A stretch of DNA of 25,713 nucleotides from the IMG/VR virus record IMGVR_UViG_3300029877_000014; one strand, written 5' to 3'. The DNA is from a virus. Taxonomy: Duplodnaviria > Heunggongvirae > Uroviricota > Caudoviricetes. The notes below the pieces were generated by a model. It worked only from the letters and a program-made list of their open reading frames with translations. It made no database searches and was not told the DNA's origin. Positions 3,289 through 23,346 of this stretch are shown here, one piece after another; positions within the stretch are counted from its first letter, which is position 1; each line of letters begins with the position of its first letter. The position numbers and the translations under genes are program-made.

Positions 3289-6200
3289 TTAGCCACTTAA
3301 CATTCCCCCATCACGTCGCATATTTAACAGATTGCCCTGCACCCGCTGATCAACCATCCCCATAAGTGCTTTTATTGCCTGAGGGCCAATCTCTCCATTC
3401 TGGCCGTCATTTTGAATAGTGATTTGGTATACAGGGGCATAGGTAATATCTCCGCCTCCATTACCACTTTTACTATTAATAGCTCTGACACCAAGAGAAC
3501 CATCGGATGTTCGTGTTAATGGCATAATGGCTTCCGGACCAGCCTCACCAAAAACACCAGCCCCTTTTGCAAAAGCAAAAAATTGCGGGGAATCATAAAT
3601 ACCGTTCGAATACGTGTTCAATGACGGAGACTCATAAACACCGCCCTTTGCATTCGGAATAAATTTACTAATAGCACTCCCGATAGTTCCTAAAATCCCC
3701 CCCGAAGAACTGTTACTAATGCTGTCGAAAATCCCAGTAATTGAAGCCTTTAATGCTATTCGACTAAGATCCGAAATCACGGAAGTAGCGAAAGAACGAA
3801 AATTTGCCTTGCCTGTCGTGACAAAATCACCCAGCGCATCGGTCATTCCATCAAACATCTGAGTCGTGGTTGATTTTATCTGCTCACTGATATCCTTAGT
3901 GTCATCCAGCCAGTTATTGAATCCCTGGGAGGCACCACTAACCCAGTCTCCTGCCTGAATATCGAGCTGCTCGTTTTTCTGTCTGACAATTTCTTTTTCT
4001 CGTTCCAGAGCATCATTCAGAGCCTGCATTTTCTCCTGAAAAACATGATTTGACATCCCACGGGATTTATCTGCATAGTCACGTTCAAGTTGCAGACGCT
4101 GATTGTTATATTCACGTTCAATCCGCAGTAATTCCTGCTGGCGTTGCTGATTTTTATCGCCAACCCCATAACCAGCAATCTGAATATCATACCCCTGTTG
4201 ACGATTATCAATCGAAGCCTGCAATAAATCACGCCATGCAGCTATTTCGGCGGATTCCTTGATTAGCCTGTTATTTTTTTCAATCGCAACATTTTTCTCC
4301 ATCAACGCGGTTATTTCTTCCCGGTGTAAGAGAAGCGATTTCTGATCCTGGGTTAATTTCGATGACGGTCGTGACTCCAGGTCGGCAATCTGCTGACGCC
4401 ACTTAACCAGTTCCTGTTCAGAGGAACTTAATTTAACGGTTAATTCAGTTTGTGAACTTAGTAACGCATTCTGTTGATTCAGATGATCAATCATTCGTTG
4501 GGCAGCATCATCCGAATAACCTTTCGCCTTTGGTTGCTTTGGATCTTTATAACGCTCATTTATTTGAGCGATAAAATTATTATATTCTTCCTTTGAATAC
4601 TGACTCTTTAGCTTTTCCAGTTTTGCAAGTTCACTAGCTCTCTGCTGCTCCCGGGTCTGATATTGTTTTGAAAAGGCATCTGCTCTCTGTCTGAGTTCAA
4701 TTCCTTCCTGTTGTCGCTTGTTGTAATCGTTTATTGATGAATTTAGGACGTCCTGAGCAATTTTTTCTGCTTGAAGTACGCCCAATTGCTGCTTTAATCG
4801 TGCCAGCCTTTTATTTTGAGCTCCGCCATCTCCAATGCCACCTAACCCGAAAACTCCGGGTCGGGTATTTTTTTCTATTTCATCAATTTGACGGAGAACA
4901 TCTGAGATTTTTTGATCAAGGGAGGCCTCACGGCCAATGTCCAGCATGGAATCCCATGCCCATTTTGCGGAGTCTGCGACAGCTTTCCATGCAGTCTCAA
5001 GATAACCAAGATTTTCTTTAATCTGGTTGGTGCGCTGGATCATTGAGGATGAGTATGCTTCTGTCGCAATGCGGGCGGCCTCCTGCTGGTTCCCTTCATC
5101 CTGTAGCGCCTTAATCTGGTTATAAGTCGCAATTGTCAGAAAATGGTACTGATCATTAAGTTTTGATATGGCACTGACAGGATCCTTTGCAATTTCATTG
5201 AAGTCATTAACCAGTTGTTCGGTTGATATTCCTGTTACTTCGCTCGTTTTTACTATCGCTGTCGTCACTTGCTCCAGCGAACTGCTCGCTACCTTTCCCG
5301 AACGCACAAGCTGGTTTAATACTGCCGCCGCAGCGCCAGTTGTCGAATCAGCCGCATTCCCGGCACGTTGAGCTATATCGGCCAATTGCCCGCTGGTTGT
5401 CCCCAACTGATTTCCGGTAAGAATAAGAGATTTATTAAATTCGTCCTGCTCCTGAGAGCCTTTATAGTAAGCCAGCCCTAAGACGCCAACGGCTGCTGCG
5501 GCCAGGGTAAAAGGATTAATTAATCCCAGCACATAAGAACCAACACCTTTGATCGCCGGGCCAATCCCACCGAACATATCTTTTAGCTGGCCGCCCTGCT
5601 GCATTAACACCATAAAAGGCGACTGACCAGTGGACAACCCAACAACAATATCCGTCATTTGTGCAGGCAACATGCGCATAGCAAAAGCCGTTTGTTTTGC
5701 CGACATTCCGGTTTTGCTTAATTGAGATTGAGTAACCTCAAGCTCACTCCGCATAGCACGAAGTTTTCCAGAAAGTTCCTCATACATTTCAGGAGAGAGC
5801 ATCCCCTTAGCTTTTGCTTCATTGAGCTGTTTCTGTTGTTCTACCAGACGATTAAAAGCAGTTCCGACAGGGTCAAGTTGAGCAATCAGACGTTGCAAAG
5901 CAGCAACCTGTTCATCATGCGCTTTTGCTGCTTCTCGCTCTGCCTGAGCCTCTCCGGTAAGCTCTCGCCGTGTTTCCTGTATTTTTCGGCTATAATTCTC
6001 AAACTGAGAACCATTTATTTTCCCGGATGCAAACGCAGCATTAAGTTCATCCTGCTGTTGTTCAAGATTTCTTAGCGCCGCAGCCAGAGGGTCGATCTTG
6101 TCCAGCATTCTTTGAAAGGCCTGAGCCTGCGCTTCCTGCTGGGCGGCAGCAAGTTTTCCGGCCTTCTCGGCTTCTCTCTGCGCTTGCGCAACCCCGCTCA

Positions 6201-19296: not shown

Positions 19297-20754
19297 TTAG
19301 GAGCGCCAAAAAAAACCTGAAAACAATATAATAACAGGATAAATTTCAAGGCGACCAAGAATCATAGCTATGCACATTAAACATTTTGCAATGTCATTAA
19401 GCACTCCGAATGACGATGCAGTAGCCCCAAAACCTAATCCCATATTATTAATACATGCAGCCACTGTTGCAAATGATGTAAGAAAATCATATCCCATACC
19501 ATTTAACACCAGTATAAAAAACACCGTGAAGAGAGTATAAAGAAAAAAGAAACTCCATACAGACCTCATTACACGATCTGTAACTATCTTCCCTCCTACA
19601 TTTACACTCAACAACGCTCTGGGATGAGAAAGCTGATTTATCTCGTGTTTGCTTTGTTTGAAAAGTATAAGAAATCGAAGTGACTTAATTCCACCACAAG
19701 TTGAACCTATACATCCCCCAAAGAAACTTGACAACAGCAAAAACACTATCGTGTGCGTGGGCCAACTTGCATAATCCTGCGTAGCTAAACCATTATCAGT
19801 GAGCATGGAGCTGGCAAGAAAAAACGAATGAATAAAACTTCCATGCAAGTCATACATACCTATATGCCAGACCTGGAAAGAGGTAACAATGATCACCCCT
19901 AAGGCTATTAACAGAAAGAAACGAAGTTCAATATCTCTGATTAAAGGTTTTATCGTTTTCCTGCTAATAACAATATACCAAAGAGTGAAGTTGAAAGCCG
20001 ATAGCAGGGAAAAAGAACCAGCCACCAGCTCAACCAAATAGTTATTAAAATATCCGATACTCTCGCTATGAGTTGAGAAACCACCAAGCGAAACTGTGGA
20101 AATCCCGTGACAAATAGCATCAAACAAAGGCATTCCTGCAAGTCTATAACAGACAATACAAGCAATACCTAATAAAGAATAAGTTATCCACAGTGTCCGT
20201 GACGTATCGGCCAGGCGGGGAGTGAGTTTGTCATCCTTAAATGGCCCCGGCATTTCTGACTGATAAAGCTTTGCACCACCAATACCCAATAATGGCAATA
20301 CAGCAACCGCCAGAACAATAACTCCTAAACCACCTATAAAATTTAACTGTGACCGATAGTACAAATATGCCCGAGGTAATGAACTAACATCATCAATTAC
20401 AGTTGCTCCTGTTGTTGTTATTCCAGAAACCCCTTCAAACAGAGCATCAATGAACGTTAAATTAAGTTCTGAGTCAATCCATAAAGGGAATGCACTAATA
20501 ACAGAAAACAAAATCCAAAACATTACAATTATAATAAACCCATCACGGGTACGTAATTGAATGCCAGATTTCTTAGTTGTATACCACGCTCCGCCACCAA
20601 TGCAAAAAAATATAACGAAAGTTATAAAGAAAACGAACAGGCTTTTTTCTTTATAAAACAATGCTACAACCATTGGTGGCAACATTGAAAGACTATAGAG
20701 CCAAACCAGGAACCCACACATATGAGTAACAACTCTTACATGAGATGTATTCAT
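19297..20754 (-). CDS. trkG: TrkH-family potassium uptake membrane protein TrkG
   Basis: Polytopic membrane protein starting MNTSHVRVVTHMCGFLVWLYSL... from the first ATG at 20754 (the track start at 20772 is TTG); matches E. coli TrkG as I recall it. Visibly AT-rich relative to flanking phage genes. Confidence 0.85.
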   Translation of the reverse strand: MNTSHVRVVTHMCGFLVWLYSLSMLPPMVVALFYKEKSLFVFFITFVIFFCIGGGAWYTTKKSGIQLRTRDGFIIIVMFWILFSVISAFPLWIDSELNLTFIDALFEGVSGITTTGATVIDDVSSLPRAYLYYRSQLNFIGGLGVIVLAVAVLPLLGIGGAKLYQSEMPGPFKDDKLTPRLADTSRTLWITYSLLGIACIVCYRLAGMPLFDAICHGISTVSLGGFSTHSESIGYFNNYLVELVAGSFSLLSAFNFTLWYIVISRKTIKPLIRDIELRFFLLIALGVIIVTSFQVWHIGMYDLHGSFIHSFFLASSMLTDNGLATQDYASWPTHTIVFLLLSSFFGGCIGSTCGGIKSLRFLILFKQSKHEINQLSHPRALLSVNVGGKIVTDRVMRSVWSFFFLYTLFTVFFILVLNGMGYDFLTSFATVAACINNMGLGFGATASSFGVLNDIAKCLMCIAMILGRLEIYPVIILFSGFFWRS

Positions 20755-20891
20755 ATCTAAATATTCTTTCAATTATAACCACCTTGCTGCAATATTATGA
20801 TTATACTGTATAAAATTTAACTCCTCTTAGATCTTACTTCACTGTTCCTTATGAAACAATCATCAAAATGAATCATATTGTAGTTAAGATT

Positions 20892-21356: not shown

Positions 21357-21850
21357 TGCTGACCCCACAAACAGATTTCACGCTCAATCTCACGACGAGT
21401 CATGAGACCTTTCCATTGCTTACCGCCAGCATATGTCCAGCGACGTAGCTGATCACATGCGCCTTTGATATCGCCCTGGTTTATTTTGCGAAGAAGCGTC
21501 GATGTTCTGAAATTGCCAGCACCCACGTTGTAAACGAATGAGTAAAGAGCGCCGCGCGTTGTTTCCGGTATATCGACTTTGATGTACGGGTTAATTTGTC
21601 TGGCGACCGTGGCAAGGTCTTTATTCAGGAGGGCTTTGCATTCTGCTTCGGTATACGTTTTACCGGGAATGATGTCTTTTCCGGTGTGTCCGTGACATAC
21701 AGTCCATACACCAACGATATCTTTATATGGTATGTAGCTGACACCTTCCAGACCATCGTTACCACTTGGGCCAGTGATTAACACTGATGCTATAGCAATT
21801 GCTCCGCCACCAATAGCAGCAGCAACGGCTTTTCGTAATGATGGAGGCAT
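21353..21850 (-). CDS. R: SAR endolysin (lysozyme with N-terminal signal-anchor-release domain)
   Basis: [39 protein letters not shown]... : weakly hydrophobic Gly/Ala-rich N-terminus followed by a lysozyme catalytic region; matches phage 21 R as I recall it. Confidence 0.85.
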
Positions 21851-22065
21851 TATTCACCTCTCGCAGCCTTGCGCTTATCTTCTTTAATCTTGAAATAAAG
21901 GTTTGTCAGGTACGTCAGCAGGCCAAATACCAGACTACCCAGCACACCGATTGCAGCCCACTGTGACGGAGTTACTCTATCGAGCAACTGTAAAAACCAG
22001 TAGCCAGCACTGCCTGCGGAGGTGCCATAGGCGACACCCGTTGTTAACTTATCCATGGATTTCAT
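21850..22065 (-). CDS. S: Pinholin S with dual-start motif (71-aa antiholin / 68-aa holin)
   Basis: [28 protein letters not shown]... from the ATG at 22065 with RBS GAGGTGGGGG; Met1-Lys-Ser-Met4 dual start; two TM segments. The track's start at 22158 is an upstream extension. Confidence 0.8.
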
Positions 22066-22336
22066 AACCCCCACCTCGCAGATGCGGGCGCTGTGTAATG
22101 GAAACAAAAAATGGCCACCAGCGGCCCGTAAAAAACACCCCGTCAAAAGCACCGGCATCCGCAGATGCCCTTTGCGTGGCGTTATTTGATGCGCGCCAGA
22201 TGTGGCGCAAAGAAATGAAATAAGACTTATCGAAAATTAAGGTCAATTTGATGATTTAAACCACTTCTGAAGCTTAGTAGTATGAACATGTCCCCAGAAG
22301 GGGGCCAATACTTATTATTCTTCATGGACTTTGTCC

Positions 22337-22369
22337 CGCGGTCTTAATCCGACGACCGCGCTACTTTTT
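22337..22369 (+). terminator. Plus-strand hairpin CGCGGUC...GACCGCG followed by CUAC-UUUUU (weaker terminator-like unit R1)
   Basis: Preceded by the mini-palindrome GGACTTTGTCCC; read from sequence. The T-run is 4 nt away from the stem. Confidence 0.3.
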
Positions 22370-22406
22370 CACCCTCTCGCAAATTGCTATCTAAAGGACT
22401 TTGTCC

Positions 22407-22439
22407 CACGAGTATTCCAGGATGCTCGTGTCTTTTTTT
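22407..22439 (+). terminator. Plus-strand intrinsic terminator R2 (CACGAG...CUCGUG followed by U-CUUUUUUU)
   Basis: 6-bp GC-containing stem extendable by A-T/wobble pairs, followed by a run of seven T; also preceded by GGACTTTGTCCC. Confidence 0.5.
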
Positions 22440-22455
22440 GTCCTGAGGAAGGAAT

Positions 22456-22479
22456 AAAAAAAACCGCCAAATATGGCGG
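22456..22479 (-). terminator. Minus-strand intrinsic terminator (CCGCCA-UAUU-UGGCGG followed by UUUUUUUU) downstream of the tRNA genes
   Basis: Perfect 6-bp stem with 4-nt loop and eight T on the minus strand; lies back to back with plus-strand terminator R2. Confidence 0.55.
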
Positions 22480-22839
22480 TTGGTCACTGCATGAGATAAA
22501 TCATTTTATTGTAATAAGAATCGAGGTGTCGGGTGCCTCCCGAAATATCCATCTCTACAACAGATATTGTGATTCCCCGCCAAACCACTATCTAAACCAC
22601 CCTCGCACTGAGGAACACCTCTGCGGTGCTTTTACAACACCAGAATGATGCATCACCGACCCTGCCAGGAAATACAAAATCTCCACCGATAATGCACCAT
22701 TCTGCTGCCGTAAAAAAATTAGCACTGTGACTACAACCGACCTCCAATCATAGTCAGAGAACGGATTGTCTTTTTAAAACAACCCACCCCACGTAATAAA
22801 AAATACGCCAGTGCCACGATACAATAAGGCTTGTTTCTC

Positions 22840-22914
<75 letters not shown>

Positions 22915-22917
22915 ATA

Positions 22918-22993
<76 letters not shown>

Positions 22994-23056: not shown

Positions 23057-23084
23057 ATAATACGATTTAATATTCCAATCGCAA
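23057..23084 (-). promoter_or_regulatory. Candidate sigma70 promoter for the tRNA pair (-35 TTGCGA, 16-nt spacer, -10 TATTAT), with an AT-rich upstream tract
   Basis: Minus-strand hexamers read from sequence, about 60 nt upstream of the tRNA-Thr 5' end; 23101-23220 upstream is strongly AT-rich (UP-element-like). Identified by eye. Confidence 0.35.
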
Positions 23085-23230: not shown

Positions 23231-23260
23231 AGAAACAACAAAACCCGCTCGATGGCGGGT
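23231..23260 (-). terminator. Terminator-like hairpin (ACCCGCC-AUCGA-GCGGGUU followed by UUGUUGUUUCU) about 90 nt downstream of the Q stop; candidate tR'
   Basis: GC-rich stem and T-rich tail on the minus strand; position is consistent with the end of a short PR'-initiated transcript. Confidence 0.4.
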
Positions 23261-23346
23261 TCTATTAAAGTTTAATTGCGCTTGATTCGCCTCGCGATAC
23301 AGCTTTGCGAAGCGTAGCAAAATTGAAGCAGTTTATGCGTAAAAAA

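Follow-up and report, generated by a model that had tools for sequence, protein, structure and literature searches.

Organization of the locus

The DNA analyzed here is a 25,713-nucleotide (nt) stretch from a virus of the Caudoviricetes (Duplodnaviria; Heunggongvirae; Uroviricota; IMG/VR record IMGVR_UViG_3300029877_000014), referred to in its full length as the window, and the element under study is a group of opposed intrinsic terminators located between its tRNA genes and its lysis cassette. The window corresponds to the late region of a lambdoid Escherichia coli prophage in which every late gene lies on the minus strand. Over the compared stretch its sequence is 100% identical to that of vB_EcoS-683R6 (ON470595), an Escherichia phage obtained by induction of a lambdoid prophage in E. 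coli. The record of this phage labels the region as Q, tRNAs, holin, lysozyme, and spanin, with concordant Pfam matches. The lysozyme (endolysin) and Rz genes come after the holin gene and are followed by trkG and by morphogenesis genes. The convergent terminators fall in a 775-nt non-coding gap that extends from the tRNA-Gly gene to the holin gene. The following features were identified on the minus strand:

23889-23347, minus strand: Q-like antiterminator gene (Pfam DUF1133, plus a weak Phage_antitermQ match)
23236-23267, minus strand: tR'-like intrinsic terminator directly 3' of Q (scan; 13-pair stem followed by UUUCUGUGGU; -16.8 kcal/mol)
23057-23084, minus strand: promoter-like site of the tRNA unit, TTGCGA-16-TATTAT (scan)
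22918-22993, minus strand: tRNA-Thr (UGU) gene (ARAGORN; Rfam tRNA, 73.8 bits)
22840-22914, minus strand: tRNA-Gly (UCC) gene (ARAGORN; Rfam tRNA, 63.1 bits)
22482-22660, minus strand: structured non-coding trailer of the tRNA unit, weakly related to STnc100/PasD
22456-22481, minus strand: intrinsic terminator, stem-loop AACCGCC-AUAUUU-GGCGGUU (22481-22462), then eight U (scan)
22169-22154, minus strand: second pre-holin terminator-like hairpin (scan)
22103-22126, minus strand: terminator-like hairpin (stem 22126-22113) plus U6, GGCCGCUGGUGGCC, about 40 nt upstream of the holin start (scan)
21850-22065, minus strand: gene for a class II (phage 21 S-type) holin, opening the lysis cassette (Pfam PF04971, E 4.8e-35; identical phage record)

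On the plus strand, the same gap contains the parts of a putative small RNA (sRNA) gene:

22255-22283, plus strand: promoter-like site, TTTAAA-17-TAGTAT, conserved in loci chosen independently of the promoter
22290-22305, plus strand: 5' hairpin H1, GUCCCC-AGAA-GGGGGC (covariation; -9.8 kcal/mol)
22306-22325, plus strand: U-rich stretch CAAUACUUAUUAUUCUUCAU, the putative seed, single-stranded in the minimum-energy and consensus folds
22326-22336, plus strand: mini-hairpin H2, GGACUUUGUCC, invariant in the promoter-selected set and the same in a core-genome paralog
22337-22369, plus strand: R1, the first terminator (stem-loop 22337-22360, tail to 22369), with a 7-pair stem CGCGGTC-TTAATCCGAC-GACCGCG and the tail CTACTTTTT
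22396-22406, plus strand: mini-hairpin H4, a second copy of H2, with compensatory change at two pairs (G-C to U-A/U.G and A-U to G-C)
22407-22439, plus strand: R2, a further terminator (stem-loop 22407-22430, tail 22431-22439; sequence reading and consensus scan)

We consider it likely, with a probability of roughly 0.7, that two convergent non-coding units meet at this site, which is the moron slot that separates Q/PR' from the lysis cassette in lambdoid prophages.

Opposed terminators on the two strands

The preliminary description of this DNA had placed a minus-strand terminator with eight U residues 16 nt from R2. These coordinates are correct, and both sites are returned by the consensus scan. 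The R2 stem-loop is CACGAGTATT-CCAG-GATGCTCGTG, with 10 pairs including two G.U, and its tail is TCTTTTTTT at 22431-22439 (also written UCUUUUUUU, to 22439). The eight U residues of the minus-strand terminator correspond to the A-run at 22456-22463 on the plus strand, so that the opposed U-tracts are 16 nt apart (22440-22455). R1, with its conserved 10-nt loop UUAAUCCGAC and the tail CUACUUUUU, fits the definition of an intrinsic terminator loosely, and it is left out by the scan solely because the loop exceeds the limit of 8 nt; R2 and the minus-strand terminator both pass. Hairpin energies are -11.0 (R1), -11.7 (R2), and -12.7 kcal/mol (minus-strand terminator).

A single hairpin serving both directions was considered and rejected. 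No T-run follows the CCGCC hairpin on the plus strand, nor the complement of R2 on the minus strand, and each strand uses its own hairpin. It should be noted that the scan returned 17 terminator-like sites in 7.7 kb, compared with 7.3 +/- 2.6 in shuffled sequences, so an opposed pair within 50 nt would not be rare by chance. The scan statistics are therefore weak, and the case for the terminators rests on their conservation among related loci.

Conservation and folding of the predicted plus-strand RNA

About 120 related loci were compared overall. With 22230-22530 as the query, BLAST matched 373 of the 5426 complete E. coli genomes, and identity in these matches was 60-100%. In five divergent copies, the element is flanked by tRNA genes on one side and by a holin gene of one of two different types on the other, with either a Q or a DNA-methylase gene upstream. 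Scanning IMG/VR with the promoter pattern yielded 84 loci with 52 distinct variants of 22245-22494, and a second scan, with a 16-mer taken from the mini-hairpin and the R1 stem, gave a set unselected for the promoter; the same promoter pattern found one locus in the GTDB genomes (Escherichia ruysiae). The synteny is nearly constant. Among 116 distinct 3-kb contexts of the phage-type plus-strand sRNA, an opposite-strand tRNA gene lies downstream in 97 of 100 (tRNA-Gly in 85) and an opposite-strand holin gene upstream in 96 of 97, at a median of 259 nt (36 S21-type and 60 holin1-type).

A five-helix structure (H1, H2, R1, H4, and R2) was written from the window and counted on the 52 variants. 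The proposed partners are paired in 98.1% of 1503 cells, against 35-51% when they are slid by 1-3 columns; seven pairs have changed on both sides, and the covariation score was reached by none of 500 shuffles. In H1, one pair is C-G in 27 variants and U-A in 23, and another is U.G in 31 and U-A in 21; one pair of the R1 stem is U-A in 25 variants and C-G in 27; and R2 has two compensatory pairs and one change from U.G to C-G. G.U pairs occupy 85 of the 1503 cells, including the U.G of 31 variants at H1 and of 32 at R2. As these cells would be A.C mismatches in the complementary RNA, the plus strand is the folded strand.

The two terminators of this strand are related. The mini-hairpin GGACUUUGUCC precedes both R1 and R2 (22326-36 and 22396-406), and a covariance model of the sRNA, with which the window itself scores 108.4 bits, recognizes in 22370-22439 a second, degenerate version of the 3' module (20.2 bits, E 0.007). 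For this reason R2 looks like a duplicated back-up terminator, a role that would fit the R1 U-tract, which is interrupted in the window allele and unbroken (7 U) in type B. The 10-nt loop of R1 (UUAAUCCGAC, or UUAAUCUGAC in the core copy) is almost invariant throughout the family while the stem below it covaries, an unusual property for a terminator that suggests a sequence-specific contact with a protein or with an RNA loop. By contrast with this constant part, the putative seed stretch is not the same in the window type, in type B, in L110, and in the core copy, and the promoter -10 element is TAATAT in type B and TATGAT in the K-12 paralog. The window carries all the hallmarks of the family: the TTTAAA-17-TA..AT promoter, a variable 5' hairpin and seed, GGACUUUGUCC, a terminator of the form CGCGG..UUAAUC(C/U)GAC..CCGCG, and a U-tract. 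The earlier claim that the plus-strand unit is real thus holds in a comparative sense, through the conserved promoter-like site, the covarying hairpins, and the strand-specific G.U pairs, and we predict from sequence that the unit is a small non-coding RNA gene rather than the 105-amino-acid (aa) hypothetical protein annotated there.

The minus-strand tRNA unit

The opposing unit comprises the two tRNA genes and a trailer of about 200 nt that precedes the terminator. At the position aligned with its promoter-like site, the divergent relatives with a Q or DNA-methylase gene upstream have TTGAAA-16-TAATAT. Among 32 distinct homologs of the trailer, 97.9% of cells are paired and a multi-helix fold is conserved, with six compensatory pairs and many G.U pairs in the minus-strand sense. 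Searched with 261 nt, the trailer aligns over its full length with Rfam STnc100 (RF02076) at 22.9 bits (E 0.003; gathering score 47), and this alignment brings out the motif CGGGAGGCACCCG-CACC.

The terminator of this unit was kept at every promoter-pattern locus. Its stem CCGCC/GGCGG is invariant, its loop occurs in 17 variants, its A-run measures 6-9 nt, and the distance to the plus-strand U-tract varies from 12 to 21 nt. It also marks the junction at which two unrelated upstream flanks are joined. In the prophage of strain E9 (L098), the terminator, trailer, and tRNA genes are kept, and TerB and DUF3927 genes follow in place of the plus-strand sRNA. In another group of variants, R2 and the minus-strand terminator are swapped for a minus-strand GCUCGC-UUCG-GCGAGC-U5 hairpin that faces R1. 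Judging by these sequences, the convergent design persists while its parts are exchanged. With terminators conserved, and with conserved, structured, and non-coding sequence on both sides of them, the proposal that two opposing transcription units meet here is supported.

Alternative explanations

Several points weigh against this interpretation. The promoter cannot vary in the promoter-pattern set, which was selected by it, nor can H2 and the beginning of H3 in the 16-mer set, so that each set can validate only the segment fixed by the other. The promoter of the window allele matches the consensus at 4/6 and 4/6 hexamer positions, which is under the scan cut-off, and R1 has a long loop and, in this allele, an interrupted U-tract. 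The variation consists of a few recombining haplotypes, two or three per helix, which amounts to few independent covariation events. The support for both RNA units is drawn from sequence anatomy and comparison. Finally, a 32-aa minus-strand open reading frame (ORF; 22325-22227), with ATG or GTG as its start codon, is unbroken in 47 of the 52 variants. This last ORF belongs to an explanation that we regard as very doubtful, namely that the region encodes small proteins: the 32-aa product, a 19-aa plus-strand product, or the 105-aa plus-strand product of 22331-22648, which is labelled as a hypothetical protein in the identical phage record. The 105-aa ORF crosses three terminators whose T-runs differ by 1-3 nt between variants, and the 19-aa ORF lacks its ATG in 23 of the 52. 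As for the 32-aa ORF, 1-nt insertions or deletions truncate or frameshift it in five variants, all of its substitutions outside the pattern-fixed part are non-synonymous, and it is absent from the core paralog; we judge it from these sequences to be non-coding.

It is also improbable that the R1 and R2 hairpins act in the leader of the late minus-strand mRNA, as RNase III or other processing sites or as stabilizers, with incidental T-runs and no plus-strand gene. The late transcript does have to cross the region, stems made of G-C and A-U pairs alone would form in the complementary RNA as well, and the minus-strand fold still reaches -40 kcal/mol. However, this fold is no better than those of shuffled sequences (z -1.2, with 24 of 200 as good), whereas the plus strand has a z-score of -4.0; the G.U pairs at H1, H4, and R2 would turn into A.C mismatches on the minus strand in most variants; U-tracts lie 3' of the hairpins on the plus strand only; and a well-spaced promoter-like site is conserved even in the core-genome paralog, outside any late operon. 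Another explanation is that the terminators insulate a mosaic module junction in both directions, and that the plus-strand transcript is a by-product without regulatory function. The coincidence of the minus-strand terminator with the recombination junction of two unrelated upstream flanks is in its favor, as is the separability of the modules; moreover, no target could be put forward for the RNA, and the complement of the seed occurs nowhere else in the window. Insulation, however, has no need for a conserved promoter, a covarying 5' hairpin, or the invariant 10-nt loop UUAAUCCGAC, leaves the family-wide pattern of a constant 3' module and a variable 5' part without use, and sits poorly with a paralog that is retained in 99.8% of E. 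coli chromosomes. We therefore regard it as unlikely, and convergent non-coding units as the preferred interpretation.

A paralog in the core genome

A BLAST search with the 90-nt plus-strand sRNA matched 5417 of the 5426 complete E. coli genomes over the 3' 46 nt at 87% identity, once per genome. The site lies between yodB and serU (also at L096 1560-1683 and L094 1400-1550). In K-12, the element spans about 2,043,059-2,043,181 of NC_000913.3 on the plus strand, with a predicted RNA at approximately 2,043,094-2,043,181 (plus strand), and its promoter, TTTAAA-17-TATGAT, is flagged by the scan (9/12). When the K-12 and O157 core copies are aligned with the phage copy, the upstream stretch, the terminator, and the U-tract are the same and the mini-hairpin is identical. 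The terminator loop is UUAAUCUGAC, and the 5' hairpin and the single-stranded stretch differ from those of the phage copy. At least four different 5'/seed versions are found on one conserved promoter and 3' scaffold. The core copy, adjacent to the phage attachment site at serU, converges on the serU gene, just as the phage sRNA faces a tRNA gene.

The MG1655 RefSeq record has no feature at this paralog, and an Rfam search of the K-12 yodB-serU locus gave no match for it. Literature text searches for yodB/serU sRNAs and for conserved 16-17-mers found no report, although the RNA could be known under another name. The seed region of the core copy, AAAUUCAACAACUCUUGG, contains CAACAAC, which would pair with the GUUGUUG of the GcvB R1 region; this is a lead and not a result. 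Within the window, a search for the complement of the phage putative seed matched only the trivial antisense site.

These data raise the possibility, which we put forward tentatively and judge to be less likely than not, that the plus-strand RNA is a real, unnamed family of regulatory sRNAs, with a core member fixed at yodB-serU and seed-swapped copies in lambdoid prophages of about 5% of strains, always antisense and just upstream of the holin gene. The shared promoter and 3' module would give its members the same expression logic and protein partner, and the exchangeable 5' part would redirect their targets. A further role of the phage copy could be in cis, at the leader of the late mRNA, where it would guard against leaky expression of the holin as a safety catch, like an antisense RNA that guards a type I toxin. 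If true, phages would here be reusing a core sRNA scaffold with new seeds, in a clean example of such reuse; and if the plus-strand RNA is expressed, nearly every E. coli, K-12 included, has an overlooked sRNA gene beside the serU attachment site.

Comparison with known systems

The moron site downstream of the Q-antiterminated PR' promoter holds convergent sRNA genes in eight prophages of strain Sakai, among them the pair EcOnc02/AsxR with EcOnc27 downstream of stx2B, and the anti-sRNAs described there are conserved in their 3' region but vary at their 5' ends (Tree et al. 2014, PMC4104026). The preliminary description was largely right in its interpretation but incomplete, since a convergent sRNA pair at the moron site is already described. 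As in the Sakai pairs, the short non-coding genes of the window lie after Q/PR' and before the lysis genes, on opposite strands and with their 3' ends facing, and the family of the antisense partner combines a constant 3' region with a 5' part that varies. Unlike AgvB and AsxR, which measure 51-60 nt, the RNA predicted here is about 80 nt long and is known from sequence. AgvB and AsxR (RF02702 and RF02703) gave no plus-strand match at E values up to 10. On the minus strand AgvB reached 15.6 bits (gathering score 56), mostly through the terminator and a match to UAUCUCAUGC.

A second parallel is provided by the Pas RNAs of enteropathogenic E. coli (EPEC) E2348/69. PasA, with a major form of 85 nt and a minor form of 236 nt, is antisense between an esterase gene and a holin gene, and PasD, at about 172 nt, lies on the sense strand (Pearl Mizrahi et al. 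2021, PMC8550237, Table S6); the holin/lysozyme operon adjoins pasA, pasC, and pasD1, and a structural relation between PasD and STnc100 has been noted (Zhu, Shabalina & Storz 2026, bioRxiv 10.64898/2026.05.13.724894). In prophage PP4 of E2348/69, the terminators that are opposed upstream of the holin gene are a PasA/C-like one and that of PasD1. The plus-strand RNA resembles PasA and PasC (EcOnc51/52) in its size and in its position antisense to the late genes and directly upstream of a class II holin/lysozyme operon; like PasA, it faces a sense-strand sRNA, and R1 and R2 would give it the longer minor isoform that PasA has, ending at a second, related terminator. Its 3' module and promoter differ from those of PasA, and identity with PasA was rejected, as BLAST (word size 7) found nothing beyond chance and the covariance model gave 9.8 bits (E 1.8). 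With the published coordinates, PasA, PasD1, and PasD2 of E2348/69 showed no BLAST similarity to the element; for PasB and PasC the comparison was limited to the published probes, whose sequences are absent from it.

The trailer, for its part, resembles PasD1/PasD2 (EcOnc13) and STnc100, in that each is a structured RNA of the sense strand, about 170-200 nt long, whose terminator faces an antisense sRNA. With PasD/STnc100 it appears to have a core in common, made up of an outer stem GGUG...CACC and two hairpins, CCUC/GAGG and CGGGAGGC(A/G)CC. When a model of the trailer core was run with filters off on the E2348/69 loci, the two best matches lay 0-1 nt from the 5' ends of PasD2 and PasD1, at only 8.6 and 8.0 bits (E 0.3-0.4). 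Unlike PasD, the trailer follows two tRNA genes and not a DUF3927 gene. None of the related loci, PasD loci included, reached the gathering score of STnc100 (47). On these alignments, the trailer is a probable distant relative of STnc100/PasD rather than a member. Small RNAs of the 3'ETS-leuZ type are reported to be trailers of tRNA operons (Lalaouna et al. 2015). The trailer is similar to these by layout alone, being a structured non-coding stretch that runs from the last tRNA to the intrinsic terminator of the operon.

With Rfam 15, tRNAs were the only families matched in this region at gathering and permissive thresholds, whether in the window, in 15 related loci, or at the K-12 locus; the weak minus-strand matches to STnc100, AgvB, STnc240, rseX, isrK, and GcvB are mostly terminator-driven. 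Two further candidates were set aside. The prophage-encoded sRNA-17 of E. coli K1 (PMC7719688) is unrelated in sequence in the supplementary alignment, and HnrS (EcOnc10-12; PMC13502914), a 66-nt late-region sRNA of strains that carry the enterocyte effacement locus (LEE), has a distribution that does not fit and was set apart by its description. Overall, the architecture is known from prophages of enterohaemorrhagic E. coli (EHEC) and EPEC, and the plus-strand RNA family is apparently undescribed. The convergent-sRNA design of the moron site reaches beyond the prophages of Shiga toxin (Stx) type in EHEC/EPEC. Commensal and extraintestinal strains have it in Rac-like prophages that carry tRNA genes, where other RNAs take up the same slots.

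Proposed mechanism

In a lysogen, PR' transcripts would stop at the tR'-like terminator at 23267-23236, whose placement after Q would fit the PR'-tR' short RNA of lambdoid phages. A sigma-70-type promoter at 23084-23057 would drive tRNA-Thr, tRNA-Gly, and the trailer of about 200 nt, up to a stop at 22481-22456. Since the unit ends at this strong terminator, transcription from the tRNA promoter in the lysogen would be kept out of the holin gene. From the opposite side, the predicted promoter at 22255-22283 would drive an sRNA that starts at about 22289 and consists of the 5' hairpin, the U-rich stretch, the mini-hairpin, and R1, for a length of about 80 nt; polymerases passing R1 would stop at R2 and yield an isoform of about 150 nt. 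Antisense transcription would therefore be kept out of the tRNA genes. The sRNA may act in cis or in trans, possibly with a chaperone bound. Upon induction, neither tR' nor the minus-strand terminator nor the two weak pre-holin hairpins would stop Q-modified polymerase coming from PR', and the lysis genes would be transcribed.

The preliminary description had further held that transcription from the Q/tRNA side normally stops here before the holin gene and reaches the lysis genes only under antitermination. The terminator itself stands, but the main barrier on the Q side is not located at this site. The minus-strand terminator most directly ends an autonomous tRNA/non-coding RNA unit that has a positionally conserved promoter of its own, and the path from Q to the holin gene has other minus-strand stop signals, namely the tR'-like site (23267-23236) and the hairpins at 22169-22154 and 22126-22113. 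An exclusive dependence of the lysis genes on Q-antiterminated polymerase would be expected from established lambdoid biology, given that a Q-like protein is encoded here. The arrangement is like lambda PR'-tR' (6S RNA) and StxS (Sy et al. 2020, PMC7547250), where constitutive transcription meets intrinsic stops that Q-modified polymerase reads through. Unlike in these systems, the convergent terminators are 800 nt further downstream and belong to separately promoted units. The gap is probably non-coding, and its terminators would explain how constitutively expressed tRNA and sRNA cargo can sit beside a lethal holin gene without leak.

Other features of the region

The segment directly after Q (23236-23330, minus strand) has weak Rfam matches to STnc370, isrK, OrzO-P, and the Trp and Leu leaders. 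This segment is probably the PR'-tR' short RNA of the phage, an analogue of lambda 6S RNA and StxS.

Both pre-holin hairpins sit between the promoter of the plus-strand sRNA and the holin start. The stem at 22103-22126 is weak in the window allele (-6.1 kcal/mol); the hairpin, which has A/T runs on both flanks, is kept beside lysis cassettes of the S21 and holin1 types, whose holins are unrelated. It may correspond to a last barrier or to a 5' stabilizer of the lysis mRNA.

The phage record annotates two plus-strand hypothetical proteins in this region, URC09393.1 and URC09394.1 (22331-22648 and 22098-22223), which are very likely annotation artefacts. The 32-aa minus-strand ORF (22227-22325) overlaps the 5' half of the sRNA and its promoter.

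The LT-IIb toxin phage SerU-LTIIb (KU052038; L002, 1839-3895) carries the tRNA, trailer, and sRNA module at 93% identity, with the tRNA/holin1a segment duplicated, a layout that indicates that the moron slot hosts rearrangements and toxin cargo. In a related prophage, L025, positions 5753-5883 (plus strand) match the trailer model weakly (15.8 bits, E 0.039; motif AUGCGGUGAA...CCUGGAAGCACCAGGCACCGCAU) and may represent another divergent STnc100-like RNA located elsewhere. Lastly, the potassium-transporter gene trkG (19297-20772, minus strand) immediately follows the gene for the Rz spanin, an order also seen in the Rac prophage, and is host-type cargo within the late operon.

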